Assembly (NCBI GenBank): GCA_963804245.1
Contig: CAWDPQ010000009.1
Span: 657,234 to 721,233 of the forward strand
Length of the DNA: 64,000 nt
Direction of reading: 5' to 3'
Source: an uncultured Acidobacteriota bacterium
GTDB taxonomy: Bacteria; Acidobacteriota; Vicinamibacteria; Vicinamibacterales; 2-12-FULL-66-21
Position numbers and translations under genes: made by a program. Below, piece by piece: positions 13,487-52,714 of this stretch. The notes under the pieces were generated by a model, which saw nothing but the letters and a program-made list of their open reading frames with translations, searched no databases and was not told where the DNA came from. The number at the start of each line of letters is the position of its first letter. Positions within the stretch are counted from its first letter, which is position 1.

Positions 13487-14701
13487 ATGGACCCGGACCC
13501 CGGCGGTGTCGTGATCGTCGGTGCCGCGCGAACACCGATCGGCCGTTTCGGTGGCGTGTTTCGCACCGTGCACCCGGCGGATCTCGCCGCCGCCGCCACT
13601 CGGGCGGCGCTCGAACGCGCGGCAGTCCCACTCGAGACCGTCGAGGAGGTGCTGATGGGCCATGCCCGCCAGGCGGGATCCGGCCCGAATACCGCGCGGC
13701 AGGTCGTCAAACGGGCCGGTCTTCCCGAGGCGGTGCCCGCGTACACGATCAATAAGGCGTGCGCATCGAGCCTGCAGGCGGTCGCGTCGGGCGCCCAGTC
13801 GATTCTCACTGGCGAATCAGAGATCGTGGTCGCTGGTGGCATGGAGTCGATGAGCCGCGTGCCGTACTTCGTGAACGCCGAGGACGCGCGTTGGGGTCAC
13901 AAGATGGGGCAGTTCGCGCTCATTGATGCGATGTATCGCGACGGATTCACCTGCTCGCTGTGCGGTCTCATCATGGGGGAGACGGCGGAAATACTGGCGC
14001 ACCAGTACGGCATCACGCGTGAGGAGTCCGACGTCTACGCCCTCGAAACGCAACGCCGCACTGCAGCCGCACACGCCGCCGGACGTTTCAATGAAGAAAT
14101 CGTTCCGGTCACGGTCACTGATGCGAAGGGCACGTCGACCGTCGTCTCCGTTGACGAGCATCCGCGGCCGGAGACCACGATTGACAGCCTGCGAAAGCTG
14201 CCGCTGGTGTTCGGCGAGGTTGAGGGACAGACCGGCATCATTACTGCCGGGACGTCGTCGGGGATCACCGACGGCGCCGCGGCCGTGGTCTTGATGTCGG
14301 GACGCAGGGCACGTTCATCCGATGTCCCGGCACGTGCGCGAATCCTCGGCTGGGCAACCGCAGCCGTGAACCCACGCATCATGGGCATTGGACCGGTGCC
14401 GGCGGTCAGGAAACTCTTGTCCCGTCTCAAGCTGACCTTGGACGACTTCGATCTGGTGGAGTTGAACGAGGCCTTCGCGCCCCAGGTGCTGGCCGTTCTC
14501 CGCGACCTGCCCATTCCGCTCGAGAAGTTGAACGTGAACGGCGGCGCAATCGCGCTCGGACATCCGATTGGTGCGACCGGCGCACGCATGCTCGTCACGC
14601 TCCTGCACGAGATGGAAAAACGGAATGTTCGACGCGGCCTGGCGACGCTGTGCGTCAGCGGCGGGCTCGGAATGGCAATGGCGATAGAGCGGAGTCGTTA
14701 G
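13487..14701 (+). CDS. acetyl-CoA C-acetyltransferase (thiolase)
   Basis: Thiolase motifs: NKACASSL (active Cys), NEAFA, NVNGGAIALGHPIGATG and CVSGGLG. 404 aa. Confidence 0.95.
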   Translation: MDPDPGGVVIVGAARTPIGRFGGVFRTVHPADLAAAATRAALERAAVPLETVEEVLMGHARQAGSGPNTARQVVKRAGLPEAVPAYTINKACASSLQAVASGAQSILTGESEIVVAGGMESMSRVPYFVNAEDARWGHKMGQFALIDAMYRDGFTCSLCGLIMGETAEILAHQYGITREESDVYALETQRRTAAAHAAGRFNEEIVPVTVTDAKGTSTVVSVDEHPRPETTIDSLRKLPLVFGEVEGQTGIITAGTSSGITDGAAAVVLMSGRRARSSDVPARARILGWATAAVNPRIMGIGPVPAVRKLLSRLKLTLDDFDLVELNEAFAPQVLAVLRDLPIPLEKLNVNGGAIALGHPIGATGARMLVTLLHEMEKRNVRRGLATLCVSGGLGMAMAIERSR

Positions 14702-14735
14702 TCGACAGTCGTTAGTCGTCGCCAGTCGCAGTCGG
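14693..14735. repeat. degenerate heptamer tandem array (AGTCGNN)
   Basis: AGTCGTT AGTCGAC AGTCGTT AGTCGTC GCC AGTCGC AGTCGG. The thiolase stop TAG (14699-14701) lies inside the array. Confidence 0.85.
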
Positions 14736-14841
14736 GCGCAAGCGGAGAAACAGCCGGGTGGCTCACAGCCTAGCGGAGATGAAAGCGGACAGTCGCAGAT
14801 AGACAGCGGCCCGAGCGACCAAGCGAGGGCTGGCAGGCGAT

Positions 14842-14966
14842 GGGGGTGCCCGCCTCCGCTGGTCGCGGAGAGTGCGGGCGACCAGCTACGGCGAGGTCTC
14901 GCCGTAGCGCGCGTGAACGTTGGCGCGCGGAGGCGGAGGGCCCCAAGCGCACTAATAAATGCAGAC
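14842..14966 (+). repeat. GC-rich structured repeat, family R2, copy a
   Basis: ~120 nt, near-identical to 51747..51865. Nested palindromes: CGCCTCCGC/GCGGAGGCG outer, CTGGTCGC/GCGACCAG, GCTACGGCGA/TCGCCGTAGC. Ends with GGGCCCCAAGCGCACTAATAAATGCAGAC, 25 nt before the next gene. Confidence 0.85.
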
Positions 14967-16043: not shown

Positions 16044-16060
16044 AGACCATGTCTATGTCA

Positions 16061-16209
16061 AATCCCAACCTCCAATTCCCAACTCCCAAAACGGGATGGC
16101 CGAAGCATTGGTGCTTAGATCGCGAATGCACCCCCCGATCGAACGAATTTCACCCAGATCGTACGTTCGGCTCGGTTGGGAGTTGGGAGTTGGAAATTGG
16201 GAGTTGAGG
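16061..16209. repeat. heptamer-array hairpin element
   Basis: Left arm TCCCAAC CTCCAAT TCCCAAC TCCCAAA (16061-16092) and right arm TTGGGAG TTGGGAG TTGGAAA TTGGGAG TTGAGG (16174-16209) are imperfect reverse complements around an ~80 nt core. It starts 18 nt after the stop of 14991..16043. Confidence 0.8.
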
Positions 16210-18259: not shown

Positions 18260-18365
18260 CTCGGGGCTCGGGGGCTCGGGGGGCTCGGGGCAGCGCCTGC
18301 GGCCCGAGCGAGGCGCGAAGCCGCCGAGCGAGAGCGAGCGGGGGGGCCCCGCGAGCGCTGAGAGA
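18260..18365 (+). repeat. GGGGCTC tandem array + MITE-like core, family R1, copy a
   Basis: The array CTCGGGGCTCGGGGGCTCGGGGGGCTCGGGG starts right after the hbd stop. The core follows: CAGCGCCTGCGGCCCGAGCGAGGCGCGAAGCCGCCGAGCGAGAGCGAGCGGGGGGGCCCCGCGAGCGCTGAGAG. Confidence 0.85.
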
Positions 18366-18381
18366 TGCTCGGACTCCCGCC

Positions 18382-18930
18382 TCAGAGCGGTTTGCGAATC
18401 AAGGTCAGGAACTCACTGCGCGTGCGGGCATCCGTTCTGAATGATCCGAGCATGGCGCTGGTGATGGCAGCCGAGTTCTGCTTCTCCACACCGCGCATCG
18501 ACATGCACAGGTGGGTAGCTTCCATCACGACGCCGACGCCGAGCGGGTCGATTTTCTCGCGGATGGTCTCGGCGATCTGATTGGTCAGCCGTTCCTGCAC
18601 CTGCAGACGTCGCGAGTACATCTCGACCAGCCGCGGAATCTTGCTCAACCCGACCACTTTGTCGCGCGGTATGTAGGCGACGTGGCAGCGGCCGAAGAAC
18701 GGCAGCAGATGGTGCTCGCACAGACTGTAGAAGTCGATGTCTTTGACGATCACCATCTCGGTATAATCGACGGTGAACAGCGCGTTGTTCAGCACCGCAT
18801 CCGGGTCGGCGCCATAACCGCTCGTCAGAAAGCTCAGCGCTTTTTCGACGCGTCTCGGCGTGTTCCGCAGGCCCTCGCGCGATGGATCCTCGCCTAGCGC
18901 CACGAGCAATTGACGAATGATGTCCTGCAT
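18382..18930 (-). CDS. folE: GTP cyclohydrolase I
   Basis: [28 protein letters not shown].., CEHHLLPF, and [15 protein letters not shown]. 182 aa. Confidence 0.95.
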
Positions 18931-19636
18931 CCTGGCATTGTATCTTGCGCTCTCAAGCGTGATTGGACCGGCCGGGCAGACTGCTGATCCGGATGCGCTC
19001 TACGCGCAGCGCGAGGCGCTGTCGAATGCTCGCAAGGCCGGGGAAATCTGGGCGGCGCGAGTCGCCAAGGATCCGCGCGATTTCGCAGCAGCCTGGAAGC
19101 TCGCCCGGACGAAGTACTGGCTCGGTGGGCACGGGCCGCTCGACGAACGCAAGCAGATCCTCGAGGATGGGATTGCCGCTGCGCGAGTTGCCATTGCCGC
19201 CGAACCAAAGCGCCCCGAAGGACATTTCTGGCTGGCGGCGAACATGGGCGAATTGGCCGAGTCGTTCGGGCTCCGGCAGGGACTCAAGTACCGCGGGGAC
19301 ATCAAGGACGCGCTGCTCACCGTGCTGAAGCTGGATCCAGCATTCCAGCAGGGTTCAGCCGACCGCGCCCTCGGTCGCTGGTACTGCAAAGTGCCCGGGC
19401 TCTTCGGCGGTAGCAAAAAGAAGTCGGAGGAGCATCTCCGGCGGTCACTCGAGTTCGACCGGAACAGCACAGCGTCCCTCTATTTTCTCGCGGAGACGCT
19501 GATCGACATGAATCGTCAGGCGGAGGCGAAGACTGAACTGCAGAGGGTGCTGGATGCGCCGCTGAACCCGGACTGGGAGCCCGAGGATCGCGAGTTCAAG
19601 GACAAAGCACAAACCCTGATCGCGAAGTTGAAGTAG
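18917..19636 (+). CDS. TPR-like secreted protein (TatT-like family, tentative)
   Basis: Signal-like N-terminus [17 protein letters not shown]. Helical repeats and ..[28 protein letters not shown].. recall TRAP-associated TatT-type proteins. That family assignment is from memory only. Confidence 0.6.
18937..18942 (-). promoter_or_regulatory. -10 box (TACAAT) 6 nt upstream of folE ATG; candidate leaderless start
   Basis: Minus strand reads TACAAT-gccagg-ATG. The box lies inside the 5' end of the divergent gene 18917..19636. Confidence 0.45.
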
Positions 19637-19649
19637 CCCCCGAGGCCAT

Positions 19650-19736
19650 CTTTCAGCGCTCGCGGGGCCCCACCCCCGCTCGCTCTCGCTCGGCGGCTTC
19701 GCGCCTCGCTCGGGCCGCAGGCGCTGCCCCCGAGCC
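19650..19736 (-). repeat. MITE-like core, family R1, copy b (inverted relative to copy a)
   Basis: The reverse complement is almost identical to 18291-18365 (GGGGGTGGGG versus GGGGGGG). It follows the stop (19736-19738) of the minus-strand gene 19736..20518 in sense orientation via one GCTCGGGG unit. Confidence 0.85.
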
Positions 19737-25675: not shown

Positions 25676-26351
25676 ATGCGGGACTTCTTCACTGGTCGAT
25701 CGCGGGCGCTTCCACTCATCGTGGGAGCGCTCGTGATCGTGTCGGACGGCGCGGCAGCGATGCAGCGCGGTCGTACTACGTCGGCCAAGCCAGCGCCGGC
25801 GACGGCTGCTAAAAAGGAGCCGGCGCAGGTGAAGTGTGCCGAGCTCCTCGGCACCGGTACCAAGACCTCTTCAACCTACTGCTTCGTCCTCGCCGGTCGG
25901 GATCCGGCGGAAGGGGTGATCGTCACGGTCCCGCCACACGCCGGCGAAGCCACGCTCACCTTCGACCTGCACAACCGCCATCTCTATTCGGAAGAAGAGA
26001 TGCGGGCCGGGCGCAGAGTACGCGAAATACACGGCCGTTATCGGCGTGCTGACGATGAAAGGGGAGTTGCTGGAGCGGGGCGCGGTCCAGACCGAGTTCC
26101 GGACAGCGGCTGACTTATACGAACGCATCTCCGGTGGCGCCGGACCTGGTGGGGTGAAGGCCGTCGCGCCGATCGGGCGCGAACAGGTCGTGATTCGCCT
26201 CCCGCAGGGCGTCGCTCAGGTAAGTTTGCTCGGGGAAGTCCTCGAAGCCGTGACCGCCGCCGGCCGCGAGACCGCCGCTCCGGGCCGACCCGTGGCGCTC
26301 GTCAGCAATGTGACGGTCGAATATCGACCCCTGAAGAAAGGAAGAAAGTAG
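25676..26351 (+). CDS. hypothetical secreted protein, frame interrupted near 26010-26040
   Basis: MRDFFTGRSRALPLIVGALVIVS.. (the frame of ORF 25652..26113) continues in the frame of ORF 26046..26351 (..EYAKYTAVIGVLTMKGELL..). The stop TAG lies in a GGAAGAAAG-type array. Confidence 0.5.
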
Positions 26352-26357
26352 AAGGAA

Positions 26358-26453
26358 GAGCGCCTGCGGCCCGAGCGAGGCGCAATGCCGCCGAGCGAGA
26401 GCGCTTGCGGGTGCCCGTCTGCCCGGGCCCCAAGCGCATTGATAAATGCAGAC
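26358..26453 (+). repeat. MITE-like core, family R1, copy c
   Basis: AGCGCCTGCGGCCCGAGCGAGGCGCAATGCCGCCGAGCGAGAGCGCTTGCGGG..GGGCCCCAAGCGCATTGATAAATGCAGAC, preceded by GAAAGGAAGAAAGTAGAAGGAAG. Confidence 0.8.
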
Positions 26454-26470
26454 TGAAAGGTGAAAGAAGC

Positions 26471-28423: not shown

Positions 28424-28440
28424 TCAGCTCCCACGTCTGC

Positions 28441-28611
28441 TTTTATTACTGCGCTTGGGGCCCCACCCCAAGCGCTCTCGCTCGGCGGCTTCGCGCCTCG
28501 TCCTTCGACAAGCTCAGGACGACCCTGAGCTGCGTCGAAGGGTCGCTCGGGCCGCAGGCGCTTCCCCAGTTCCCCAGTTCCCCAGTTCCCCAGTTCCCCA
28601 GTTCCTCAGTT
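28441..28611 (-). repeat. MITE-like core family R1 copy d with nested 45-bp palindromic insertion, plus CCCCAGTT x6 octamer array
   Basis: Core 28441-28562 (GCGCTTGGGGCCCCACCCCAAGCGCTCTCGCTCGGCGGCTTCGCGCCTCG[..insert..]CTCGGGCCGCAGGCGCT). Array 28564-28611. The ATPase stop (28606-28608) lies in the last unit. The element sits between two genes of an apparent operon. Confidence 0.85.
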
Positions 28612-30108
28612 GTAATACTTCTTCTTTTCCCCTCGCATGGGAATCTCACGCTCGGTCAGTGCGTCCGCCGCGGTGCTGCGAGGCCCGCGGCGTGCCGGTT
28701 CCGCGCCCTGATAATGGAACTCGTCCGACCGGCTGATTTTTTTCTGTGCGTAGAGCCCTTCGAGCACGAAATCGACCGCAGCCGCCAGCATCGGCGCGGC
28801 AGCGCGGTCTGCGAGTCCGGCCTGTGCGGCGAGCTCACGCAGGCCCTGCACGTCGCCGGTGCGCTTCAGCAGCTCCGCCGCGGGCAGCGTGTCGTCCACC
28901 TGCAGATTGCCGCCGAGATCGAACCACTCCGTGACCTGGCGAATGTCGGCGTTTGGAAAGTAGCCGGTGAAGACATTGGCGACCGCCGCGCGAATGACGT
29001 CGCGCGCGACGTTGTCGGCGCCGCGCAATTCGCCTTCGTACTCGAGCTCGAACTTTCCGGTGATGGCCGGGAGCGCAGCATAGATATCGGTGATGCGCGG
29101 CACGATGATCGATTCGCCGGCGAGGAGCGCCCGCCGTTCGGCGTTGGAGACGACGTTCTCCAAGAGTGAAATCGGCAGCCGCTGGCTCACGCCGGAGCGT
29201 TTGTCGATCTTCGATTCCTGGCGGGCCTGGAACGCCACCTCCTCGACCGCCTCGCGCACGAACGGCGGCACCTCCACGGTGCCGCGGTCGACCCAGGCTT
29301 CCTGCTCGGTGATCGCCATCGCGTCCTTCCGCGTGGCCGGGTAGTGGGTCCGGATCTCAGAACCGATTCGATCCTTGAGCGGCGTGATGATCTTGCCGCG
29401 AGCCGTGTAGTCCTCGGGGTTGGCGCTGAAGACCATCAGCAGGTCGAGCGGCAGGCGCACCGGGTAGCCCTTAATCTGAACATCCCCTTCCTGCAGGATG
29501 TTGAAGAGACCGACCTGAATCTTGCCGGCAAGGTCGGGCAGCTCGTTGATCGCGAAGATACCGCGATGCGCCCGCGGCAGCAGCCCGTAGTGCATCGTTG
29601 TTTCGTCGGACAGATCGAGCCCGGCCCTGGCTGCCTTGATGGGATCCAAATCGCCGATCATGTCGGCGATGGTCACATCCGGCGTCGCCAGCTTCTCTAC
29701 GTAGCGACCGTCGCGCGAAAGCCACGACACCGCCATCCGATCGCCTTCGGATCGCGCACGCGCGCGACAAACCGCACAGATCGGCGAGACCGGGTCGTCG
29801 TGAATCTCACAACCCGGGACAACGGGCAGCTGTTCGTCGAGCAGCCCGGTCAGCGCTCTGAGCAGCCGGCTTTTTGCCTGGCCGCGCAGGCCGAGCAGGA
29901 TGAAATTGTGACGGGACAGGATGGCGTTGACGACCTGAGGGACAACCGTTTCATCGTAACCGACGATGCCCGGGAAGAGTGGTGTCCCGGACTGCTGGTC
30001 GCGCATCCGCGCTACGAGGTTCTCGCGGATCTCATCTTTCACCGAACGCCGCTTGATCCGTCCCGCTGCGATGGCCTGACGGAGCTCGGCAACGGTGGTA
30101 GGAAGCAT
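28606..30108 (-). CDS. ChlI/BchI-like (Mg-chelatase-type) AAA+ ATPase
   Basis: [16 protein letters not shown], a P-loop variant GLRGQAKS, Walker B-like [10 protein letters not shown], and [33 protein letters not shown] (ChlI-like sensor region). 500 aa. Confidence 0.82.
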
Positions 30109-30146: not shown

Positions 30147-30938
30147 TTGCCGACTTTGCAGAGGCCTCTGGTTTACGCGCACCGCGGCGGGGCGGCGCTC
30201 CGTCCCGAGAACACGATTGCCGCCTTTGATCACGGCTTGTCCTTCGGCGCGGACGGTCTCGAGTTCGATGTGCACCTGTCGCGCGACGGCGCCGTCGTCG
30301 TGCATCACGACGATACGCTCGAACGTACGACCGGCGTATCCGGCCTGGTGGCGGATCATACGGCGGACGAACTGGCGCGGCTCGACGCCGGCTTCACATT
30401 CCAGTCCCGGGAGCCCGGTGGATCAAACGGCTTTCCGTATCGTGGCCTGGGCCTCGGCATCCCGCGCCTTCGCGACGTCCTCTCGCGGTATCCGTCGGCA
30501 CGCTGCATCATCGAGCTGAAGACGAGCGAGCCCGAGCTCGTCCGCCGGACAATCGACGACATTCGGGCCGCATCCGCCGTGGACCGCGTCGCCCTGGGCT
30601 CGTTCTACTGGCGAGCGCTGAACACGGCGAGAGCCTACGAGCCGCGCATTCCCACGGGTGCGTCCAAGGAAGAGACCCGCTGGGCGCTGTATCGATCCTG
30701 GGTGCGCCTGCCGCTGGGGCGGACTGGTTATCGTGAGTTCCAGGTTCCCGAGCACATGGGAGTGAACACGATCGTCACTCCCCGGTTCATCGCCCATGCC
30801 CACCGTTCCGGTCTGCCGGTGAAGATCTGGACGGTCAACGACGAGCGAGACATGCGACGGTTACTCGACTGGGGCGCTGACGCGCTGATCAGCGATCGAC
30901 CGGACCTGGCGGTTGAAGTCGAAGTCGCTAGTCGCTAG
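30147..30938 (+). CDS. glycerophosphodiester phosphodiesterase
   Basis: VYAHRGGAALRPENTIAAF and ..LEFDVHLSRDG.. are GDPD motifs. TTG start. The stop TAG lies inside a GTCGCTA array. Confidence 0.88.
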   Translation: MPTLQRPLVYAHRGGAALRPENTIAAFDHGLSFGADGLEFDVHLSRDGAVVVHHDDTLERTTGVSGLVADHTADELARLDAGFTFQSREPGGSNGFPYRGLGLGIPRLRDVLSRYPSARCIIELKTSEPELVRRTIDDIRAASAVDRVALGSFYWRALNTARAYEPRIPTGASKEETRWALYRSWVRLPLGRTGYREFQVPEHMGVNTIVTPRFIAHAHRSGLPVKIWTVNDERDMRRLLDWGADALISDRPDLAVEVEVASR

Positions 30939-30957
30939 TCGCTAGTCGCGAGTCTCG
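30915..30957. repeat. degenerate heptamer tandem array (GTCGCTA)
   Basis: GAAGTC GAAGTCGCTA GTCGCTA GTCGCTA GTCGCGA GTCTCG, overlapping the last codons and the stop of the GDPD gene. Confidence 0.85.
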
Positions 30958-35422: not shown

Positions 35423-38099
<2,677 letters not shown>

Positions 38100-39528: not shown

Positions 39529-40962
39529 ATGGCTGATTCCTCAACGCAGCTTGCGGTCGTTGGTGCGGGTCCGGGCGGTTATGCGGCCGCGTTCTACGCC
39601 GCCGATCGCGGCATGCAGGTCACCCTCATCGATCCGGGTCCGAATCCTGGAGGCGTGTGTCTCTATCGCGGCTGCATTCCGTCCAAGGCGCTGCTGCACG
39701 TCGCCGAGGTCGTGAACGAGGCGAAGCACGCCGAGGCGTGGGGGGTCACGTTCGGCCCGCCATCCGTTGACCTCGCGAAGTTGCGCGCCTTCAAGGAGAA
39801 GGTGGTCACGCAGCTCACGGGCGGGCTCGGCCAACTCTCGAAGCAGCGCAAGGTCAACTACGTGCGCGGTACGGCTGCCTTTCGCGATTCGCGCACGCTC
39901 GAGATTTCGGGCGAAGGCCCGGCATCGGCAGCGAGCGTGCTGCGGTGCGAACACACCATCGTCGCCACGGGATCGCGCCCGTCAGTCATTCCCGGATTGA
40001 CCATCAACAGCCCGAAAGTGATGGATTCCACCTCAGCTCTGGATCTTCCCGACGTTCCCGGCACGCTGCTGGTGGTGGGTGGCGGTTACATCGGACTCGA
40101 GCTCGGCAGCGTATATGCGGCGCTGGGTTCTCGCGTGACGGTGGTCGAGATGACAGCCGGTCTGTTGCCGGGTGCCGACAGGGATCTCGTGAACATCCTG
40201 GCGAAGCGGATCGAGAAGATCTGCGAAGCGGTGATGCTCAACACGCGAGTCGTCGGGATGAAAGAGACGAAGACCGGCGTCGCCGTCACGTTCGACGGCG
40301 AGGGACTGGGTGACGGGCCTCGCGAGCGGACGTTCGACCGTGTGCTCGTGTCGATCGGACGCCGGCCCAATTCGGCTATACCTGGCCTGGACCGGACGGC
40401 TGTGAAGGTGAACGCCCGCGGCTTCATCGAGGTCGACGAACGCCGACGGACCGCCGAACCCTCGATCTACGCGATCGGTGACGTCGTGGGGGAGCCGATG
40501 CTCGCGCACAAGGCCTCGCACGAGGCGCGCGTGGCCGTCGATGCCATCGCTGGCGAGCGGGTCGCATTCGAGCCGCAGGCGATTCCTGCCGTCGTCTTCA
40601 CCGATCCCGAGCTCGCCTGGTGCGGGCTGACGGAGACCGAGGCGAAGAATCAGAAGCTCGAAGTGGCCGTCGCCCGTTACCCATGGGCTGCGTCGGGGCG
40701 GGCGCTGACGCTCGATCGTTCTGACGGCGTAACCAAGCTGGTGCTGCACCCGCAGAGCGGCCGCGTGCTCGGCGTCGGCATCGTCGGGCCCGGCGCCGGC
40801 GAACTCATCTCCGAGGCTGTGCTGGCGATCGAGATGGGGGCCACCGCCGAGGATCTCAAACTCACGATTCACCCGCATCCCACCCTGTCCGAGACGCTCA
40901 TGGAAGCGGCCGAGGTGTTCTTCGGCCAATCCACACACGTCTATCGCCCGAAGCGCGCGTGA
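39529..40962 (+). CDS. lpd: dihydrolipoyl dehydrogenase (E3)
   Basis: FAD motif VVGAGPGGYAAA, redox disulfide GGVCLYRGCIPSK, NAD motif VVGGGYIGLELG and C-terminal HPHPTLSE. Confidence 0.95.
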   Translation: MADSSTQLAVVGAGPGGYAAAFYAADRGMQVTLIDPGPNPGGVCLYRGCIPSKALLHVAEVVNEAKHAEAWGVTFGPPSVDLAKLRAFKEKVVTQLTGGLGQLSKQRKVNYVRGTAAFRDSRTLEISGEGPASAASVLRCEHTIVATGSRPSVIPGLTINSPKVMDSTSALDLPDVPGTLLVVGGGYIGLELGSVYAALGSRVTVVEMTAGLLPGADRDLVNILAKRIEKICEAVMLNTRVVGMKETKTGVAVTFDGEGLGDGPRERTFDRVLVSIGRRPNSAIPGLDRTAVKVNARGFIEVDERRRTAEPSIYAIGDVVGEPMLAHKASHEARVAVDAIAGERVAFEPQAIPAVVFTDPELAWCGLTETEAKNQKLEVAVARYPWAASGRALTLDRSDGVTKLVLHPQSGRVLGVGIVGPGAGELISEAVLAIEMGATAEDLKLTIHPHPTLSETLMEAAEVFFGQSTHVYRPKRA

Positions 40963-40965: not shown

Positions 40966-41042
40966 GGGGTCAGATCTTGTTTCTTGCGCGCGTGTCCTCT
41001 TTCTGCGACAGGACACGAGTGCAAGAAACAAGATCTGACCCC
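40966..41042. terminator. 77-nt nested hairpin between convergent lpd and UDG genes
   Basis: GGGGTCAGATCTTGTTTCTTGC pairs perfectly with GCAAGAAACAAGATCTGACCCC. The inner stem is GTGTCCT/AGGACAC. There is no U-tract. Confidence 0.7.
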
Positions 41043-41044: not shown

Positions 41045-41731
41045 CTACGTCTCCGCGAGCTTACGCGCGCGGATGAACACAAATTCGAGCATCGACGCCG
41101 TGAGCACACCCGTGTTGGTGTTCTGACGGCTGGGGTGATAAGAGCCCACCACCGCGGGCGCGCCGGGCGGACGGTGAATCAGCCCATGGCCGAATTGCGG
41201 CTTCGGCTTTACGACAACTCCTCGATCAGCGAGCAGCCGCCAGGCGGCGTCGAATGCAATCCGACCCAGAGCGACGATGACCTTCAGGTGTGGGAGGGCG
41301 TTGGTCTCTGCCTCGAGATGCGTGTGACAGGCGTGTATTTCGCCGCGAGTCGGCTTGTTGGCCGGCGGCGCGCAGCGCACGGCCGCCGCAATGTACGCGT
41401 CTCGCAGTTGCAGGCCGTCCGCCGGATGGCGAGAGGTTGGGATGTTGGCGAATCCGGCCTTGTGCATCGCGGCCATCAGAAAGTCACCGGAACCGCCGGC
41501 CACGTCACCGGTGAAGACGCGTCCTGTCCGATTCGCGCCGTGCGCGGCCGGCGCCAGCGCCAGCACGAGCACGCGGGCTGTGGGGTCGCCGAATCCCGGG
41601 ACGGGCCGGCCCCAATACGTCTCGTTCCGATGGGCCGCTTTCTTCTCGCGTGCAACGTACGCGCAGTAGTCTCTCAGGCGCGTGCAGCGCGTGCAGGTCA
41701 CGATCTCTTGATGGATGTCGAGGAGGTTCAT
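41045..41731 (-). CDS. uracil-DNA glycosylase superfamily protein (family 5/UdgB-like motif)
   Basis: Fe-S Cys pattern (TCTRCTRL..C), motif A variant VLALAPAAHGANRTG rather than the GEAPG of family 4, and C-terminal HPSRQN. 228 aa. Confidence 0.82.
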   Translation of the reverse strand: MNLLDIHQEIVTCTRCTRLRDYCAYVAREKKAAHRNETYWGRPVPGFGDPTARVLVLALAPAAHGANRTGRVFTGDVAGGSGDFLMAAMHKAGFANIPTSRHPADGLQLRDAYIAAAVRCAPPANKPTRGEIHACHTHLEAETNALPHLKVIVALGRIAFDAAWRLLADRGVVVKPKPQFGHGLIHRPPGAPAVVGSYHPSRQNTNTGVLTASMLEFVFIRARKLAET

Positions 41732-41746
41732 CGAAGTTTCCGAATA

Positions 41747-41830
41747 CGCCCGCCCTTCAGGGCGGGCCTACGGCAGAATGTCCGCGTCCTGACACGCAAC
41801 TGTGGCCGCCCTTCAGGGCGGGCGTGTGCG
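41747..41830. repeat. two REP-like hairpin elements
   Basis: CGCCCGCCCTTCAGGGCGGGCCTACGG (41747-41773) and GGCCGCCCTTCAGGGCGGGCGTGTGCG (41804-41830). The stem is GCCCGCCC/GGGCGGGC with loop TTCA. Confidence 0.85.
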
Positions 41831-41845
41831 CAGCTCGTAGCGTCG

Positions 41846-42802: not shown

Positions 42803-43504
42803 ATGTCTCGCCTCTCCATCACGTGGCTCGGCCACGCGACGTTCATCATCACCACTCCCGGCGGCAAGCGCATAGTCATCGACCCCTGGCTCGAGTCGAA
42901 CCCGATGTGCCCGCCCGATCGCAAGCGCATCGACCGCGCCGATTTGATCCTGGTGACCCACGGCCACTTCGATCACACCGGCGACGTCGTCAACGTGTCC
43001 CGCTCCACCAACGCTCCCGTCGTCGCTGTCTTCGAATTGGCGCAATGGTTCGAGCGTAAAGGACTTCAAAACGTGCAGGGGATGGGGGTTGGCGGGACGA
43101 TCTCGATCGCCGGCCTCGAGGTCTCGATGACTCCCGCCGTTCACACGAGCAGCGTGGTCGAGAACGATACGACGGTCTATGTGGGTGTGGCCACCGGTTT
43201 TGTCGTACGTATGGAGAATCAACAAGCGTTCTACTTTGCGGGGGACACCGCCCTCTTCGGCGACATGCAGTTGATCCGCGAGATGTATCAGCCGGACATC
43301 GCGTTTCTGCCGATCGGGGACCACTACACCATGGGACCGGCCGCCGCCGCCCGTGCGTGCGCAATCTTGGGGGTCAGGCAGGTGGTGCCCATGCACTACG
43401 GCACGTTCCCGGTTCTGACGGGAACGCCAGACCGCTTGAAGTCACTCGTGCAACCGCACGGAGTCGACGTGCTGGTTCTCAAGCCGGGGGAAACGGCGGA
43501 ATGA
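42803..43504 (+). CDS. UPF0173-type metal-dependent hydrolase (metallo-beta-lactamase fold)
   Basis: ITWLGHATFIITTPGGKRIVIDPWL and LILVTHGHFDHTGD. 233 aa. Confidence 0.85.
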   Translation: MSRLSITWLGHATFIITTPGGKRIVIDPWLESNPMCPPDRKRIDRADLILVTHGHFDHTGDVVNVSRSTNAPVVAVFELAQWFERKGLQNVQGMGVGGTISIAGLEVSMTPAVHTSSVVENDTTVYVGVATGFVVRMENQQAFYFAGDTALFGDMQLIREMYQPDIAFLPIGDHYTMGPAAAARACAILGVRQVVPMHYGTFPVLTGTPDRLKSLVQPHGVDVLVLKPGETAE

Positions 43505-43573
43505 AGTCGTCAGTCGGTAGTCGCTAGTCGTCGCTAGTCCGTAACGGTAGGCCCGGCCTTCAGGTCGGGCGTG
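43505..43573. repeat. AGTCGNN heptamer array followed by REP-like hairpin
   Basis: AGTCGTC AGTCGGT AGTCGCT AGTCGTCGCT AGTCCGT starts directly after the stop at 43504. Then GGTAGGCCCGGCCTTCAGGTCGGGCGTG, which also encodes the last codons of the convergent gene. Confidence 0.85.
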
Positions 43574-44333
43574 CTGGTAATTCAAGCGCTTTCTGAATGT
43601 TGGCGACGAGGCGCTCCACTTTCACGCCCGAGGTATCGATGGTGTGGTCCGCTGAGGCGTAAAGCGTCTCCCGGGCGGCCAGCAGCGCGCGCAGATCGGC
43701 CATGGCCTGCGGGTGGTTGGCCATGGGTCGCCGGTCGCCCTGACGAACCACGCGGTTCCAGTGATCTTCCGGCGCCGCCTTCAGCCAGATCGTGACCGCG
43801 GACCGCCGCAGTGTCGCCAGCGTCTCGGGTGACATGACCAGCCCGCCGCCCGTTGCGAGCACCATGGGCTTGCCTTCCGCGATCACCGCGTCCAGCGTCT
43901 CGTGCTCGAGGCGACGGTAATAGTCCTCCCCGTGAAGGGAGAAGATCTCACTGAGACTCAACTCGGCGGCCTCCTCGATGCGGCCGTCGAGCTCGACGAA
44001 AGGGAGCCTCAAGCGCCTGGCCAGACGCCGTCCAACCGTGGTTTTCCCGGCGCCGCGCAGGCCGAGCAGCGCAATTACTCGCTTCGGCGCGCGCTCGGGT
44101 TCAGCGAGCAGCTCTGCGGCCGTCGTTCCCAGCGCTCGTGCAACATCCACCAGGCGACGCACGGAGATGTTTCCGCGGCCGGATTCGAGTTGCACCAGGA
44201 ACCGCGCGGACAACCCGGAGCGCTCCGCCGCCTCTCGCAGCGTCCACCCGCGCTCGACGCGCAACGCCCGGGCTCTGGCGCCCAGCTCGCTCAGAACTTC
44301 ATCCGGCATGATGGCGATATGTTCCTGAAGCAT
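43560..44333 (-). CDS. boxR: BzdR/BoxR-type transcriptional regulator (XRE-family HTH fused to shikimate-kinase-like domain)
   Basis: N-terminal HTH (RGWTLREAAERSGLSARFLVQLESGRGNISV) and a C-terminal SK-like domain with P-loop GLRGAGKTTVG. It is divergent from boxCB. The start is uncertain (ATG options between 44309 and 44408). Confidence 0.78.
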   Translation of the reverse strand: MLQEHIAIMPDEVLSELGARARALRVERGWTLREAAERSGLSARFLVQLESGRGNISVRRLVDVARALGTTAAELLAEPERAPKRVIALLGLRGAGKTTVGRRLARRLRLPFVELDGRIEEAAELSLSEIFSLHGEDYYRRLEHETLDAVIAEGKPMVLATGGGLVMSPETLATLRRSAVTIWLKAAPEDHWNRVVRQGDRRPMANHPQAMADLRALLAARETLYASADHTIDTSGVKVERLVANIQKALELPARPT

Positions 44334-44436
44334 GACGGCGAGAGAGAACCCGTATGGCGATGTCATGCGCGCGTTGCATGGACTGCATGCGTAACTTATG
44401 CGGGACACACACCAAACAGGACCGTATCATCGGCAC

Positions 44437-44646
44437 ATGACAAATACCGAGGCGTCGCCTACCCGTACTCTGACCATCGTTTTGCCCGAATCGGATTGGC
44501 GTGCCTTGCGTGCAGCGGAGCCGGACGCCGTGGCATGGCTCCAGGAACGGATTCGCGAGCGACTGGCAACGGAAGCCTCTTCCGGCAGTTACGTTCCTCC
44601 GACCGGACCGGCCGCCGACACCTGGTTCGCAGACGACGAGTACTGA
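44437..44646 (+). CDS. small hypothetical protein (69 aa)
   Basis: ATG 44437 lies 6 nt after TATCAT (44425-44430). Sequence MTNTEASPTRTLTIVLPESDWRALRAAEPDAVAWLQERIRERL..; no recognisable family, and coding status is unproven. Confidence 0.35.
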   Translation: MTNTEASPTRTLTIVLPESDWRALRAAEPDAVAWLQERIRERLATEASSGSYVPPTGPAADTWFADDEY

Positions 44647-44793
44647 GAGATTCGCAGTCTTAGGGCCGAGGAGCGTCCACGCTCCGCGGCCCCTCGTGTC
44701 CCCGCATCGTCCACCCCACAATCTCCTCACAACATCCAAGTCGGTTTCCTGTTCGCTGCGTTCGTCGTCTGCCACGCCTGTCGACTGAAGCAT

Positions 44794-44827
44794 TATAGTG
44801 CACACACATTCAATTAAGAGCACTATA
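44794..44827. promoter_or_regulatory. AT-rich inverted repeat upstream of boxC (candidate operator)
   Basis: TATAGTGC-(18 nt)-GCACTATA, immediately upstream of the -35 box. It is unusually AT-rich for this window. Confidence 0.4.
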
Positions 44828-44832
44828 CTTCC

Positions 44833-44862
44833 TTGACACTTCCGCGAATCCGCAAGTAGTCT
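44833..44862 (+). promoter_or_regulatory. sigma-70-type promoter of boxC (TTGACA-18 nt-TAGTCT), 7 nt before the ATG
   Basis: TTGACA at 44833-44838, TAGTCT at 44857-44862 and ATG at 44870. Confidence 0.55.
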
Positions 44863-44869
44863 GGAGCGA

Positions 44870-46525
44870 ATGGAAAGCGCCGGCTCGTCGATGCAGGTGT
44901 CCTTTGAAACGTCTCCGGACCGCTACCGCCATTGGAAGCAGAGGTTCGACGGACCGGTCGCCACGCTGTCGATGGATGTGCAGGAAGACGCAGGCCTTTC
45001 GAGCGAGTACCGGCTGAAGCTCAACTCGTACGATCTCGGCGTCGACATCGAACTGGCGGACGCCGTTCAGCGCATCCGCTTCGAGCACCCTGAAGTCCAC
45101 ACTGTCATCATCACCAGCCTCAAGGAGCGCATCTTCTGCGCCGGCGCCAACATCTTCATGTTGCGCGGATCCAGTCATGCGTGGAAGGTCAACTTCTGCA
45201 AGTACACGAACGAGACGCGGCTGGCCATCGAGGATGCGAGCGAGCACTCGGGCATCAAGTTTCTCGCGGCGGTCAATGGCATTTGCGCCGGCGGCGGCTA
45301 TGAACTGGCGCTGGCCTGTGACGAGATTCTCCTCGTCGACGATGGGAACTCGGCGGTCAGTCTTCCCGAAACGCCACTGCTCGGCGTCTTGCCCGGTACG
45401 GGCGGTCTCACTCGCGTCGTGGACAAGAGAAGAGTGCGTCGGGATCTTGCCGACGTGTTCGGGACGGTGGCCGAAGGCGTCAAAGGCCGGCGCGCCGTCG
45501 AATGGCGTCTCGTCGATGCCGTCTATCCAACGAGCCAGTTCAAGGATCGCGTTGCCCGGCGGGCCCAAGAGCTCGCTGCTCTCTCCGACCGACCCGCCGC
45601 CGGACCCGGAATCATGCTGAACGCGTTGAATCCGACAGTGACTGCAGATGCTGTGCAGTACTCGGCGGTCAGCCTGGAGATCGATCGGAACAAACGTCTC
45701 GCCACGCTGACTGTCAACGGTCCGGAACAGGAAGAACCGTCGACGCCCGCGGAGATTCTGCAGGCGGGCGAACGTTATTGGTTCGTCCGAGCATTTCGCG
45801 AGCTGGAGGATGCGCTGTTGCGGCTGCGGGTCAATGAGCCGTTGATCGGTACGGTGGTCGTGAAGACCCGCGGCGATGCCTCGCGAGTCCTGAACGCAGA
45901 TGCCGCGCTCATAGCCAACCAGGACTATTGGCTGGTGCGCGAAGTGATTCACTTCGTGAAGCGGACGCTGAAGCGGATGGATCTGACGTCGCGAAGCTTC
46001 TTCGCACTGATCGAACCCGACAGCTGCTTCGCCGGTACTCTTTTCGAGCTGGCGCTGGCCGCCGACCGCTCCTACATGCTCGACGATCCTCAACACCCAG
46101 TGACCATCGCCCTGTCGGCGATGAACGGCGGTCCGTTGAAGATGAGCAACGGCCTGACGCGTCTCGAGACGCGATTCCTCGGTCAGCCGGATCACGTGCG
46201 CGACTTGCTGGACGAAGGAGAGCCGTTCGATCCGCAAGAGGCGTTGGATGCCGGGCTGGTATCCTTTGCGCCGGACGAATTGGACTGGGACGACGAAGTC
46301 CGTCTCGCCGTCGAAGGACGTGCCGCGCTCTCGCCTGACGCTCTGACCGGGATGGAAGCCAACTTGCGTTTCGCCGGACCGGAAACGATGGAGACGAAAA
46401 TCTTCGGTCGGCTCACCGCGTGGCAGAACTGGATCTTCCAGCGGCCCAACGCTGTCGGTGCCACGGGTGCGTTGACGGCGTACGGGTCGCAGTCGCGACC
46501 GGAGTTCGACTTCAACAGAACGTAA
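44870..46525 (+). CDS. boxC: benzoyl-CoA-dihydrodiol lyase (2,3-epoxybenzoyl-CoA dihydrolase)
   Basis: ~550-aa double crotonase-fold protein (..ERIFCAGANIFML.., ..CAGGGYELALACDEI..) directly upstream of boxB. Size and context fit BoxC. Confidence 0.85.
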   Translation: MESAGSSMQVSFETSPDRYRHWKQRFDGPVATLSMDVQEDAGLSSEYRLKLNSYDLGVDIELADAVQRIRFEHPEVHTVIITSLKERIFCAGANIFMLRGSSHAWKVNFCKYTNETRLAIEDASEHSGIKFLAAVNGICAGGGYELALACDEILLVDDGNSAVSLPETPLLGVLPGTGGLTRVVDKRRVRRDLADVFGTVAEGVKGRRAVEWRLVDAVYPTSQFKDRVARRAQELAALSDRPAAGPGIMLNALNPTVTADAVQYSAVSLEIDRNKRLATLTVNGPEQEEPSTPAEILQAGERYWFVRAFRELEDALLRLRVNEPLIGTVVVKTRGDASRVLNADAALIANQDYWLVREVIHFVKRTLKRMDLTSRSFFALIEPDSCFAGTLFELALAADRSYMLDDPQHPVTIALSAMNGGPLKMSNGLTRLETRFLGQPDHVRDLLDEGEPFDPQEALDAGLVSFAPDELDWDDEVRLAVEGRAALSPDALTGMEANLRFAGPETMETKIFGRLTAWQNWIFQRPNAVGATGALTAYGSQSRPEFDFNRT

Positions 46526-46601
46526 CAGCCGTAGCGCGGGGGTTTACCCCCGCGTAACCGACGCGCCGCTAAAGCAGCGCGCTACGGGCGTGGGGTTGAC
46601 G

Positions 46602-48020
<1,419 letters not shown>

Positions 48021-48025
48021 CAGGA

Positions 48026-48051
48026 CCTGGCCTTCAGGGCGGGCGTGTGCG
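48026..48051. repeat. REP-like hairpin element (partial)
   Basis: CCTGGCCTTCAGGGCGGGCGTGTGCG, 6 nt after the boxB stop. Confidence 0.75.
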
Positions 48052-48064
48052 AATCACGGCATTC

Positions 48065-48862
48065 ATGAGCAAAATCAACGTCAGCGTCGCCGACGGGATC
48101 GCGACGATCGAATTGAACGACCCGCCGGCGAACACCTACTCCTACGAGATGATGCGCGAGCTCGACGCGGCCGTGCTGGACGCTCGCATGGACGGGGGAG
48201 TCCACGTCATCGTGCTGCGCGGGGCGGGGGAAAAGTTCTTCTGCGCCGGCGCGAACATCGGGATGCTCAAGGAGGCCGACGCCGAGTTCAAGTACTACTT
48301 CTGCCTGCACGCCAACGAAACGCTGCTGCGACTCGAGCAGACGCCGAAGCTGGTGATCGCGGCGCTGAACGGACACACGGTCGGCGGTGGACTCGAAGTG
48401 GCGCTGGCCGCCGATCTGCGCGTCGCCCACCAGGGAGCGGGGAAGATCGGATTGCCCGAGGTGGCGCTCGGGGTGCTGCCCGGAACCGGGGGCACCCAGC
48501 GACTGGCTCGACTCGTGGGCAAGTCGCGAGCGATAGAGCTCATGGCCACCGGGCGTCTGATGACCTTCGATGAAGCCCGCACCCTCGGCATCGTCCACGA
48601 GGTCTGGGGAGACGACGAGCTGAAGGGACTGACGTTTGCCGCCGCGGTGCAAGCCTACGCTCGGCAATTCACGCCGCCACACAAGGCCAGCGGCGCGGTT
48701 GGACGCATGAAGCGCGCGGTGCAATCAGGCGCGGAGGCCGGTATTCTCGAAGGATTGTCGCTCGAACGCGAGCTGCAGCAGCTGCTGTTCCAGAGCGAGG
48801 ACGCGAAGGAAGGGTTGGCAGCGAGTCAGGAGAAGAGGAAACCAGTTTTCAAGGGCCGATAA
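48065..48862 (+). CDS. enoyl-CoA hydratase/isomerase family protein
   Basis: ATG 48065 (MSKINVSVADGIATIELNDPP). FCAGANI, GHTVGGGLEVALAADLR and C-terminal ..EGLAASQEKRKPVFKG. Confidence 0.88.
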   Translation: MSKINVSVADGIATIELNDPPANTYSYEMMRELDAAVLDARMDGGVHVIVLRGAGEKFFCAGANIGMLKEADAEFKYYFCLHANETLLRLEQTPKLVIAALNGHTVGGGLEVALAADLRVAHQGAGKIGLPEVALGVLPGTGGTQRLARLVGKSRAIELMATGRLMTFDEARTLGIVHEVWGDDELKGLTFAAAVQAYARQFTPPHKASGAVGRMKRAVQSGAEAGILEGLSLERELQQLLFQSEDAKEGLAASQEKRKPVFKGR

Positions 48863-48884
48863 ACGTTAAACGTACGATGCCTTC

Positions 48885-48967
48885 GGCACGCACGACGACA
48901 CGACGGCACGAAGACACGAGAAATCCAAATAGCCGGGTCGTCGTGGCTTCGTGTCGTCGTGTTTACC
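48885..48967. repeat. 7-8 bp array hairpin (CACGACG-type arms)
   Basis: GGCACGCACGACGACACGACGGCACGAAGACACGAG / loop / GGGTCGTCGTGGCTTCGTGTCGTCGTG. It starts ~23 nt after the stop at 48862. Confidence 0.8.
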
Positions 48968-48983
48968 CGTCAGGACGTATACG

Positions 48984-50444: not shown

Positions 50445-50447
50445 AAA

Positions 50448-50550
50448 CGTCGATGTGCTACGTGCTACGTGCTACGTGCGACGTGCCACGTGCCCTCGCT
50501 GCACGTTGCACGTCCTGCACGAGTAACGTAGCACGTAGCACGTAACACGT
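50448..50550. repeat. heptamer-array hairpin (CGTGCTA arms)
   Basis: CGTGCTA x3, CGTGCGA, CGTGCCA, CGTGCCC / centre / ..GTAACGTAGCACGTAGCACGTAACACGTG. It fills the whole intergenic space between two genes. Confidence 0.85.
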
Positions 50551-50551
50551 G

Positions 50552-51703: not shown

Positions 51704-51865
51704 AAACTGGGGAACTGCGGGGACTGGGGAACTGGGAGAACGCCTTGGGGGTGCTCGCCTCCGCTGGTCGCGGACAGGCAGGCGACCAGCTACGGCGAGG
51801 TCTCGCCGTAGCGCGCATGGATTATCGGCGCGCGGAGGCGGAGGGCCCCAAGCGCAGTGAGTAAA
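51703..51865 (+). repeat. AACTGGGG octamer array + structured repeat family R2, copy b
   Basis: The array AAACTGGGGAACTGCGGGGACTGGGGAACTGGGAGAA begins at the stop codon. The core at 51747-51865 matches 14842..14966. Confidence 0.85.
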
Positions 51866-51895
51866 GATAACTGGGCAAGCAGGAAGCGGAAAGCC

Positions 51896-52666: not shown

Positions 52667-52672
52667 AAACAG

Positions 52673-52714
52673 CGACCAGCCGCCAGCGTTCCAGCCACCA
52701 GCTTCCAGCTTTCC
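52673..52714. repeat. degenerate CCAGC-type tandem array
   Basis: CGACCAGCCGCCAGCGTTCCAGCCACCAGCTTCCAGCTTTCC, between convergent genes. Confidence 0.7.

Follow-up and report, generated by a model that had tools for sequence, protein, structure and literature searches.

Stop-anchored tandem arrays of 7-8 nt units in Vicinamibacterales DNA and related loci

Tandem repeats with seven-nucleotide units were recognised in cyanobacteria in 1990 and in Xanthomonas in 2015; for the examples studied most closely, the leading proposal is that they form G-quadruplexes (G4s). Here we analyse arrays of 7-8 nt units found at gene 3' ends in a 64-kb stretch of DNA (contig CAWDPQ010000009.1; hereafter the window) from a member of the Vicinamibacterales (Acidobacteriota subdivision 6), together with 160 related loci totalling 1.9 Mb. 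An earlier inspection of the window, which we call the original prediction, had listed 17 such intervals. The observation of stop-anchored 7-8 nt arrays is confirmed and robust. The class itself is already described; what is new is the phylum, the density of the arrays, the very large diversity of their units and the quantified turnover.

The closest described systems are the heptamers of Xanthomonas and Nostoc. Xanthomonas genomes contain ~185 GGGAATC arrays each, and Nostoc and Anabaena contain GGGGA(C/T)T arrays (Rehm et al. 2015, PMC4692102). These arrays mostly have four units, are 89-93% intergenic, and lie a mean of 28 nt from the upstream open reading frame (ORF), with some extending over its stop codon and 7-8% located between divergent ORFs (PMC4692102). 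Convergent inverted pairs number 70-75 per Xanthomonas genome (70/186 in X. campestris), all functional gene classes are represented, and length and sequence vary among related species (PMC4692102). The record of heptamer tandem repeats in cyanobacteria (Calothrix) goes back to Mazel et al. 1990, as cited in PMC4692102. A further intergenic heptamer, TAACTGA, occurs at many loci in Beggiatoaceae, cyanobacteria and Bacteroidetes, in 2-6 and up to 43 copies (MacGregor 2015, PMC4679880). It consists of a single unit, is mostly positioned a few nucleotides upstream of start codons and has almost no inverted pairs (PMC4679880). The original prediction knew of no described element class with the behaviour seen in the window, but matching behaviour is published for the Xanthomonas and Nostoc heptamers (PMC4692102). 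Our literature search found no paper combining Acidobacteria with heptamer tandem repeats.

Other repeat families provide further points of reference. Short tandemly repeated repetitive (STRR) sequences are defined by a few fixed units (STRR1-3) in heterocystous cyanobacteria and, to our knowledge, stop-codon anchoring is not part of their description. Elhai and colleagues reportedly described, in 2008, small palindromic mobile repeats nested in cyanobacterial heptamer arrays. Repetitive extragenic palindromic (REP) sequences, bacterial interspersed mosaic elements (BIMEs) and REP doublets forming hairpins (REPINs) are found outside genes, at their 3' ends and in operon junctions rather than in promoters, form transcribed hairpins and reach hundreds of copies. 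REPs are conserved palindromes of 20-40 nt with a fixed GTAG head, and are mobilised by the REP-associated tyrosine transposase (RAYT). Many E. coli REPs are said to lie at most 15 nt from a stop codon and to affect translation of the upstream gene, as Liang, Rudd and Deutscher reportedly found in 2015. The simple sequence repeats (SSRs) of phase-variable contingency loci have units of 1-5 nt, are located in promoters or 5' coding sequence, and are hypermutable through slippage.

Arrays at stop codons in the window and its relatives

Arrays were detected with Tandem Repeats Finder (TRF). High G+C content yields many spurious ORFs, and the window has 62-66% G+C along its whole length. For this reason, gene ends were determined from codon-position G+C and with a codon-usage caller, followed by a Pfam check of array-adjacent genes. 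TRF reported period 7-8 arrays, or doubled units of 14-15 nt, at 16 of the 17 listed intervals, the sole interval under its score threshold being 55019-55042. After merging, the window had 13 period-7/8 arrays with at least 2.8 copies, compared to a mean of 1.04 and a maximum of 5 in 100 dinucleotide-preserving shuffles. About 14 of the 17 intervals were at, across or within ~35 nt of a true stop codon, and Pfam confirmed the gene ends concerned. The tandem arrays near stops are therefore real.

The 160 related loci, designated by L and a number, were gathered by a protein-guided scan and come from many independent assemblies made with differing technologies. Measured by identity in the query protein, the nearest relatives reach 83% (a metagenome contig) and 76% (genomes); exact-protein look-ups with two window proteins returned no record of same-species relatives. 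The original prediction had allowed that the arrays might be assembly artefacts. Their presence across many independent assemblies from different technologies excludes this possibility.

Period and position were counted in 80 genome loci plus the window (1.3 Mb), with the genome and metagenome sets also analysed separately. There were 104 intergenic period-7 arrays versus 11 in coding sequence, equivalent to 71 versus 0.95 per 100 kb, a difference of ~75-fold. Period 8 accounted for 29 intergenic versus 13 coding arrays, and periods 4, 5, 6, 10 and 11 for just 1-4 intergenic arrays each. This period specificity was replicated in genome and metagenome loci taken separately. Vicinamibacterales-like loci had ~11 period-7 and 3-5 period-8 arrays per 100 kb and Terriglobia ~3 arrays per 100 kb. 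Arrays of this lineage number ~110-140 per Mb.

The original prediction had proposed a test for bias toward stop codons. In the related loci this bias proved real, and it was replicated in an independent locus set. Within same-strand spacers, array position peaked at the stop end (Kolmogorov-Smirnov p 1e-5), with a second peak at the start end that was also replicated. This second peak corresponds to 3' arms, because the last arms of paired arrays end near starts. Unpaired arrays were a median of 5 nt from the stop versus 40 nt from the start. All 11 unpaired arrays with at least six copies overlapped the stop or began no more than 4 nt away from it, even when followed by 50-140 nt of further spacer. 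Divergent spacers of the genome-contig set contained 7-8 arrays versus 24-33 expected (p 3e-4 to 8e-7), and those of the smaller metagenome set deviated in the same direction without reaching significance (p 0.07-0.25). Use of TAA, TAG and TGA beside arrays did not differ significantly (p 0.2). Relatives also contain giant arrays, all starting 0-11 nt from a stop codon: a 376-nt spacer composed of ~17 GATTGNN units and ~25 complementary CAATCGN units (L019 7344-7719), (GGTGCGG)22 at L048 2665-2818, and (GGGTTCTC)18 at L037 12160-12305.

The proposal that the architecture is constant while the unit varies was borne out: arrays lie at the 3' ends of genes and have a median of 4 copies, and the 133 period-7 arrays of the window and its relatives comprise 92 different canonical units. 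A stronger version, in which every locus has a unit of its own, was only partly correct: units are varied, yet AGTCGNN recurs at four loci of the window, GGGGCTC at four (including a short run at 19726-19735), and AACTGGGG and CCAGCTN at two each. Across the full set, 20 units were common to at least two loci versus 8.5 expected with shuffled units. Array pairs at different junctions shared a unit, allowing one mismatch, in 13.8% of cases within a genome versus 4.7% between genomes (p 5e-5). This implies families of units specific to each genome, a situation shared with Xanthomonas and Nostoc, except that many more such families exist here.

We next describe the arrays of the window outside its four paired loci, which are on the plus strand unless stated otherwise. 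Several touch element A, a neighbouring sequence resembling a REP or a miniature inverted-repeat transposable element (MITE), or element B, both of which are treated further below. The focal array at 14693-14735 reads AGTCGTT AGTCGAC AGTCGTT AGTCGTC GCC AGTCGC AGTCGG, or ~6 degenerate AGTCGNN units (TRF 14693-14719, period 7, 3.9 copies). The thiolase stop codon TAG at 14699-14701 is inside it, and the last two codons (Ser-Arg) are encoded by the array, with Thiolase_C ending at residue 402/404. This is one of five cases in which the original prediction placed a stop inside an array (14699, 26349, 28606, 30936 and 63387), all of which were correct. The GDPD gene derives its last ~7 codons and its stop codon TAG (30936-30938) from the AGTCGCT array at 30915-30957, which has ~5-6 units (TRF 30923-30954, 4.6 copies, 96% match); the GDPD domain ends at residue 254/263. 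On the minus strand, the gene at 28606-30108 has its stop codon TGA (28606-28608) in the first unit, a variant AACTGAGG, of the array at 28562-28611, which is (AACTGGGG)6 in gene sense (TRF 6.2 copies, 97% match) and abuts element A at 28435-28563. Also on the minus strand, the stop codon of a thioesterase gene (63387-63389) is inside the array at 63384-63411, which consists of 3.7 CTAGGAG / CCAGGAG units in gene sense (TRF, nhmmer, Pfam) and abuts element A at 63284-63383. The array at 26333-26359, with 3.6 GGAAGAAAG-like units at 71% match (TRF), contains the in-frame TAG at 26349-26351 and abuts element A at 26359-26453, past which GAAAG-like units reappear at 26454-26470. The ORF ending at 26351, upstream of this array, had no Pfam match. 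Arrays thus provide the final codons and stop codon of several genes, which is relevant to annotation.

Elsewhere arrays follow the stop codon, starting 0-28 nt past those at 16043, 43504, 48862, 50444, 51703 and 52666. The GGGGCTC(G) array at 18260-18290 (TRF, 3.4 units) begins on the first base after the stop at 18259, which is reached by the 3HCDH domain (Pfam) of a 3-hydroxyacyl-CoA dehydrogenase, and abuts element A at 18291-18367. The ~5 AGTCGNN units at 43505-43541 (TRF 43512-43539, direct and inverted repeat, Pfam) also begin on the first base after a stop (43504). They have a metallo-beta-lactamase-fold gene upstream and a GTAG-headed REP (43547-43573) next to them in a convergent intergenic region. 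The first base after the stop at 51703 begins 4.4 units of AACTGGGG at 51704-51741 (TRF, direct repeats), with element B (51746-51871) next. A second convergent array, at 52670-52714 (TRF, Pfam), has ~6 CCAGCNN / CCAGCTT units, lies 4-7 nt past the enoyl-CoA hydratase stop at 52666 and shares a direct repeat with 61682-61714.

Three of the listed intervals fit the original prediction less well. The array at 2235-2272, ~4.6 units of GCTCGGG / CGGGGGCT (TRF), is within the 3' end of the ABC-2 permease ORF at 1361-2326 and is read through, with no stop codon at the array; the Pfam domain stops at residue 276/321, and the remaining tail is encoded by the array and a palindrome at 2273-2362. The array at 60551-60579, 3.8 units of CGAGCCCC without an assigned strand (TRF, direct repeats, Pfam), sits where a degenerate copy of element A (60506-60552) ends and has no confirmed stop; an IclR-type gene starts 35 nt downstream of it (60614). 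Finally, 55019-55042 on the minus strand is marginal as an array: by eye it comprises ~3 degenerate AGTCGTN units, located 34 nt beyond the stop (55076) of an NtrC-type regulator (Pfam).

Inverted pairs and turnover

Nearly half of the arrays (100/207) had a reverse-complement partner array within 220 nt, compared to 1/207 in a reversed-sequence control, which gives the spacer a long hairpin fold that extends from stop codon to next start. Paired arrays spanned ~100 nt, and the loop between them had a median length of 32 nt. Of 21 same-strand spacers with both arms, the first arm was at most 15 nt past the stop in 18, and the last arm was at most 15 nt before the start, or overlapped it, in 15.

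Four loci of the window had been described as pairs of complementary arms forming hairpins, and all four do so, with z scores of -4.6 to -7.8 and 0/200 shuffles folding as well. All arms are given on the plus strand. A 5' arm of (TCCCAAC)n at 16059-16092 (TRF, inverted repeat), 16 nt past the isocitrate/isopropylmalate dehydrogenase stop at 16043, pairs with a 3' arm of (GTTGGGA)n at 16174-16209 (TRF, fold, Pfam) that stops 12 nt short of the next gene, a thiolase with its ATG at 16221 (hairpin 16058-16207, -72.2 kcal/mol, z -6.7). The (CACGACG[A])n arm at 48885-48920 (TRF), 23-28 nt past the enoyl-CoA hydratase stop at 48862, pairs with (CGTCGTG)n at 48937-48967 (TRF, fold, Pfam), which ends 16 nt before the aldehyde dehydrogenase ATG at 48984 (48885-48967, -40.9 kcal/mol, z -4.9). 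Past the stop of the latter gene at 50444 by 3 nt is the (ACGTGCT)n arm at 50447-50493 (TRF 5.6 copies, 93% match, inverted repeats). It is followed at 50499-50550 by an inner pair and a 3' arm of (AGCACGT)n (TRF, fold, Pfam), which enters the start of a kynureninase-like gene (GTG 50549 / ATG 50552; hairpin 50448-50550, -66.4 kcal/mol, z -7.8). The fourth pair begins at the ferredoxin stop codon TAA (61680-61682) with (CCAGCTN)n at 61682-61716 (TRF, Pfam) and closes with (AGCTGGN)n at 61753-61785 (TRF, fold), which contains a GGAGG Shine-Dalgarno-like motif and ends 1 nt before the ATG at 61787 (61683-61785, -62.5 kcal/mol, z -4.6). The operon at 44870-52666 resembles the aerobic benzoyl-CoA (box-type) pathway (Pfam), and in many genomes arrays are concentrated at its junctions.

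Comparison of orthologous junctions, another check proposed at the outset, revealed both presence/absence differences and rapid unit turnover. In some genomes, many of the junctions measure only 2-20 nt or the genes overlap, whereas in others the orthologous junction is filled by an array, with a different unit. For example, L016 and L026 have flanks that are 90% identical, yet one junction reads 'TAA C ATG' in L026 and contains a 112-nt paired array in L016. Most orthologous junction pairs had an array in one genome only, and even relatives whose flanking proteins are at least 90-95% identical differed in presence. Where both genomes had an array, the unit was the same in 2/3 pairs at a flank-protein identity of at least 95%, in 7/19 at 90-95%, 22/84 at 85-90%, 12/84 at 80-85% and 2/105 at 70-80%. 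Between L041 and L040, the unit of one array changed in concert. Arrays are thus additional sequence, missing from the corresponding gene junction of close relatives, and they are gained, lost and re-unitised quickly.

We also considered local seeding from resident junction sequence. The unit was not found above chance in array-free orthologous junctions (79 tests; mean best match 5.23 versus 5.10), implying that arrays are mostly new DNA rather than amplified resident sequence. Local seeding was rejected on this systematic test of 79 junctions, the power of which is limited by spacer divergence. There are exceptions that look locally seeded, namely an L142 unit that extends the last codons and TAG, and a CTGGTGA series at one junction in L037, L033, L123 and L024.

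Explanations for the arrays

These results are most simply accommodated if the arrays are STRR-like tandem repeats of 7-8 nt that are added at gene junctions, grow by slippage, are often duplicated in inverted orientation, and are filtered by selection to harmless sites. We give this account roughly an even chance of being right. New arrays would be seeded or copied into junctions and would then grow or shrink in one-unit steps through strand slippage, with the second arm presumably arising from template switching. The 7-nt step would be preferred for a mechanistic reason, the only proposal in print being that it matches the footprint of the replicative polymerase. As neither 7 nor 8 is a multiple of 3, arrays would shift the reading frame and hence be confined to indel-tolerant sites. 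They would survive only in operon junctions and either just past an ORF or within its final codons, and not in coding sequence or divergent promoters. No dedicated function would be required. The hairpin is probably tolerated or mildly favoured, since looping out the insert would keep stop and start close and preserve translational coupling, and it may shield the 3' end of the upstream mRNA much like REP/BIME elements in E. coli.

Several points weigh against this account. By itself, slippage does not account for the complementary second arm, nor for one unit recurring at distant loci of a genome. Arrays are anchored exactly at the stop despite more than 50 nt of further spacer, which exceeds what a simple filter for permissive sites would produce. 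Two locus pairs that are 99.9% identical and contain more than 10 arrays had zero copy-number changes, indicating that slippage is not fast. The hairpin spacer shared by L042 and L047 is 84% identical versus 57-61% at flanking third codon positions, which could indicate constraint. Lastly, the stop-proximal arm has more G than C on the sense strand in 75 arrays and more C than G in 41, which hints at strand-specific selection.

The last two points also speak for a rival reading, in which the arrays are selected RNA elements of 3' untranslated regions and operon junctions. Their hairpins would tune coupling or access to the ribosome-binding site (RBS), or act as barriers to 3' exonucleases or as terminators lacking a U-tract, with single arrays being degenerate remnants or half-sites. 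In 13 of the 21 paired spacers, the first arm is within 20 nt of the stop and the last arm is within 20 nt of, or overlaps, the start, which places the downstream RBS in the 3' arm (in the window, 16174-16209 and 61753-61785). The depletion of arrays in divergent spacers is in line with such a role. So are the conserved hairpin spacers of L016/L026 and L042/L047, which kept their length and are 80-84% identical versus 57-71% at flanking third codon positions. Repeat alignment, concerted evolution or mild constraint may account for that excess, and low complexity inflates identity between repeat arrays. Moreover, the second paired array of L016 and L026, although identical in length, is decaying without compensatory changes, with 26 and 23 of 34 positions paired by eye. 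Presence differs among close relatives, units are quickly replaced, and one third to one half of arrays lack a partner arm. No U-tract follows the hairpins, with a mean of 2.0 T in 12 nt versus 2.2 expected. We regard selected RNA elements as possible but unlikely.

Two conventional roles in transcript ending were considered and rejected. Canonical terminators would require T-runs after the 3' arm, but these positions averaged 1.96 T in 12 nt versus 2.16 expected, and only 1/27 had at least six T. No consensus terminator coincided with an array in sense orientation, and consensus intrinsic-terminator sites (hairpin plus T-run) within 43001-63000 of the window were at chance level (15 versus 13.1 expected). 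The lineage probably ends transcripts by other means, and other 3'-end structures may accordingly be needed, which would favour an RNA role. Rho utilisation (rut) sites are C-rich, the opposite of the G-over-C bias of stop-proximal arrays on the sense strand.

Another explanation is that the arrays, or the paired hairpins, are miniature mobile elements or their footprints. They might be copied by a transposase or recombinase, or a 7-8 bp target-site duplication might be amplified by insertion and excision of small palindromic elements and then expanded by slippage. A period equal to the length of the target-site duplication would explain why only 7-8 nt units occur. Consistent with mobility, arrays are net insertions with units not found in array-free orthologous junctions, and recurrence of the same unit at distant loci is three times commoner within a genome than between genomes, part of which may be attributable to imperfect gene calls splitting one spacer. 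All five clear copies of element A in the window carry a heptamer or octamer array on their AGCGCC end, toward the stop codon, and 2-3 copies have unit-like sequence on both sides (19637-19645 and 19726-19735; 26333-26358 and 26454-26470). Small palindromes are also located within arrays of L008 and L039, where the array continues past the insert. However, element A is missing from 158/160 related loci that carry many arrays, and arrays with the same unit have no common flanks or terminal motifs beyond the units themselves. The filled and empty site of L016/L026 showed no consistent target-site duplication. Judged as MITEs, the paired arms act as inverted repeats and units recur, yet no consistent duplicated target or common internal sequence was found. 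Arrays of 10-22 copies are not plausibly built by cycles of insertion and excision alone. No transposase candidate was identified in the window, where no transposase search was made. On balance, we consider a mobile origin rather unlikely.

More speculative still is the notion that stop codons, or the sites at which translation finishes and the transcript is left naked, are hot spots of a dedicated DNA process that adds 7-8 nt tandem units irrespective of their sequence, often plus their reverse complement, with the hairpins then retained in operons as modular devices for coupling or mRNA stability. Candidates for such a process are a mobile element with an amplified target-site duplication, or template-switch synthesis associated with R-loops. 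If true, it would bring the heptamer repeats of cyanobacteria, Xanthomonas and Acidobacteriota under a single mechanism. We hold this to be doubtful.

The published model for heptamers, in which they are regulatory repeats forming G4s (PMC4692102) or i-motifs, is very improbable here. Three window arrays have at least four G-runs on one strand (18260-18290, 28562-28611 on the minus strand, and 51704-51741). Nevertheless, only 18/202 arrays (9%) have at least four runs of G3+ or C3+, GGG or CCC is present in only 47/202 units, and most units (AGTCGCT, ACGTGCT, CCAGCTT, TTCGCAA and others) are incapable of forming a G4. Unit composition thus refutes G4 as a general explanation.

Least credible is the original suggestion that a stop in every frame might be a selected property, which would serve to catch frameshifted or read-through ribosomes: units bearing CTAG (AGTCGCT, CTCCTAG) do provide TAG in all frames, and the three sense frames are closed in 21/105 stop-proximal arrays (20%) versus 9/105 antisense, but that excess is expected because arrays overlapping a stop codon contain one by construction, at least one frame is open in 80% of these arrays, and a stop triplet is present in 29% of sense units, identical to the 29% of shuffled units.

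Neighbouring features and described systems

Element A is MITE/REP-like, ~80-120 nt long, with imperfect terminal inverted repeats (AGCGCCTGCGGCCC / GGGCCCCAAGCGCA) and no Rfam match. Copies located with nhmmer are at 18291-18367 (plus), 19647-19725 (minus), 26359-26453 (plus), 28435-28563 (minus) and 63284-63383 (minus), with the degenerate copy at 60506-60552 (minus). This amounts to 5-6 copies in 64 kb versus one in the 160 related loci (L027 11166-11266), and element A is therefore not a general source of arrays. The idea that arrays in general are part of element A was rejected, as the element is confined to the window and L027. Two copies (18287-18344 and 19673-19730) are 100% identical over 58 nt in inverted orientation, with the others 75-90% alike. 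This identical pair brackets the genes at 18382-18930 (minus) and 18917-19636 (plus), and such identity points to a recent duplication or to gene conversion.

A 40-nt palindromic mini-element, CCTTCGAC..GCTCAGG..CCTGAGC..GTCGAAGG, is found at 28502-28541 of the window, L008 5275-5315, L022 2094-2133 and L098 18034-18072. The window copy is nested in element A, the L008 copy lies within a CGCGAAT array and the L098 copy adjoins an array; small palindromes are also nested in the L039 array. The mini-element was sought with a loose regular-expression search that mostly returned coding false positives alongside these four true copies. Element B (14841-14966 and 51746-51871) is ~125 nt long, 94-95% identical between its two copies, and downstream of an array in both cases. 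Each copy folds into a long branched hairpin (z -4.3) with a GTAG-type palindrome (CTACGGCGAGGTCTCGCCGTAG). GTAG-headed REP/REPIN-like palindromes (GTAGGCCCG.CCTTCAGG.CGGGC and relatives) occupy spacers at gene 3' ends at 2273-2362, 41741-41774, 41815-41845, 43547-43573, 46526-46589 and 48026-48056, and one of them fills an operon junction that bears heptamer arrays in many other genomes. A near-perfect hairpin without tandem substructure (40966-41042; 33-nt arms, 94% complementary, 11-nt loop) occupies the spacer of the convergent genes at 39529-40962 and 41045-41731.

Two coding regions of the window are disrupted. A pyruvate dehydrogenase E1 (aceE-like) gene at 35423-38099 is split over two overlapping frames, with Transketolase_N in the ORF at 35423-37261 and PDH_E1_M plus the transketolase (TK) C-terminal domain in the ORF at 36738-38099; this is either a frameshift pseudogene or an assembly indel error. 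Between 20736 and 25643, paralogous CBM6/CBM35 and Big_7 segments recur every 500-1900 nt. Past 22.7 kb these segments are scattered over at least four reading frames, implying decayed duplicates or assembly indels. A search of the window for tRNA and tmRNA genes found none, and Rfam returned no family at gathering scores and only spurious miRNA-type hairpin matches at E values up to 5.

How the arrays relate to described repeats depends on the feature considered. Similar to contingency-locus SSRs, they are short tandem repeats that would change by slippage, but they lie at gene 3' ends and did not change in copy number between 99.9% identical loci. Unlike TAACTGA repeats, the unpaired arrays are at stop codons. 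They differ from REPs and REPINs in having no conserved sequence beyond the unit of a locus or family, in their 7-8 nt periodicity and in being unpaired in many cases; the GTAG-headed REP-like palindromes of the window are separate elements that adjoin the arrays. As with cyanobacterial STRR sequences, tandem heptanucleotides are scattered over many non-coding sites and each genome has several families of units, although here unit diversity is far greater and the host is acidobacterial. The octamer CCCCAGTT is the only unit of the window containing CCCCAGT, which we take to be the STRR1 heptamer. The nesting of small palindromes in L008, L039 and at 28502-28541 of the window resembles that said to occur in cyanobacteria.

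The correspondence is closest with the Xanthomonas and Nostoc heptamers. In both cases, period 7 is over-represented, arrays have ~4 copies, are non-coding, lie near the end of the upstream ORF, in some cases overlapping its stop codon, and are rare in divergent spacers, and convergent inverted pairs able to form stem-loops are frequent. Further common features are a spread across all functional classes of genes and variation in length and sequence among related species. The Xanthomonas and Nostoc repeats have one dominant G-rich unit and a proposed G4, whereas here there are 92 units in 133 period-7 arrays, a G4 could form in only 9% of arrays, octamers occur commonly as well, and the host belongs to another phylum. 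Vicinamibacterales, with dense arrays and plentiful filled and empty junctions, would be a good system in which to study the birth of arrays and the effect of hairpins on operons. A shared 7-nt period, copy number of ~4, stop anchoring, avoidance of divergent promoters and inverted pairing, combined with ~100 mostly non-G-rich units, suggest that period and position, not sequence, define the class, which weighs against a G4 or a sequence-specific binding protein as its general explanation.

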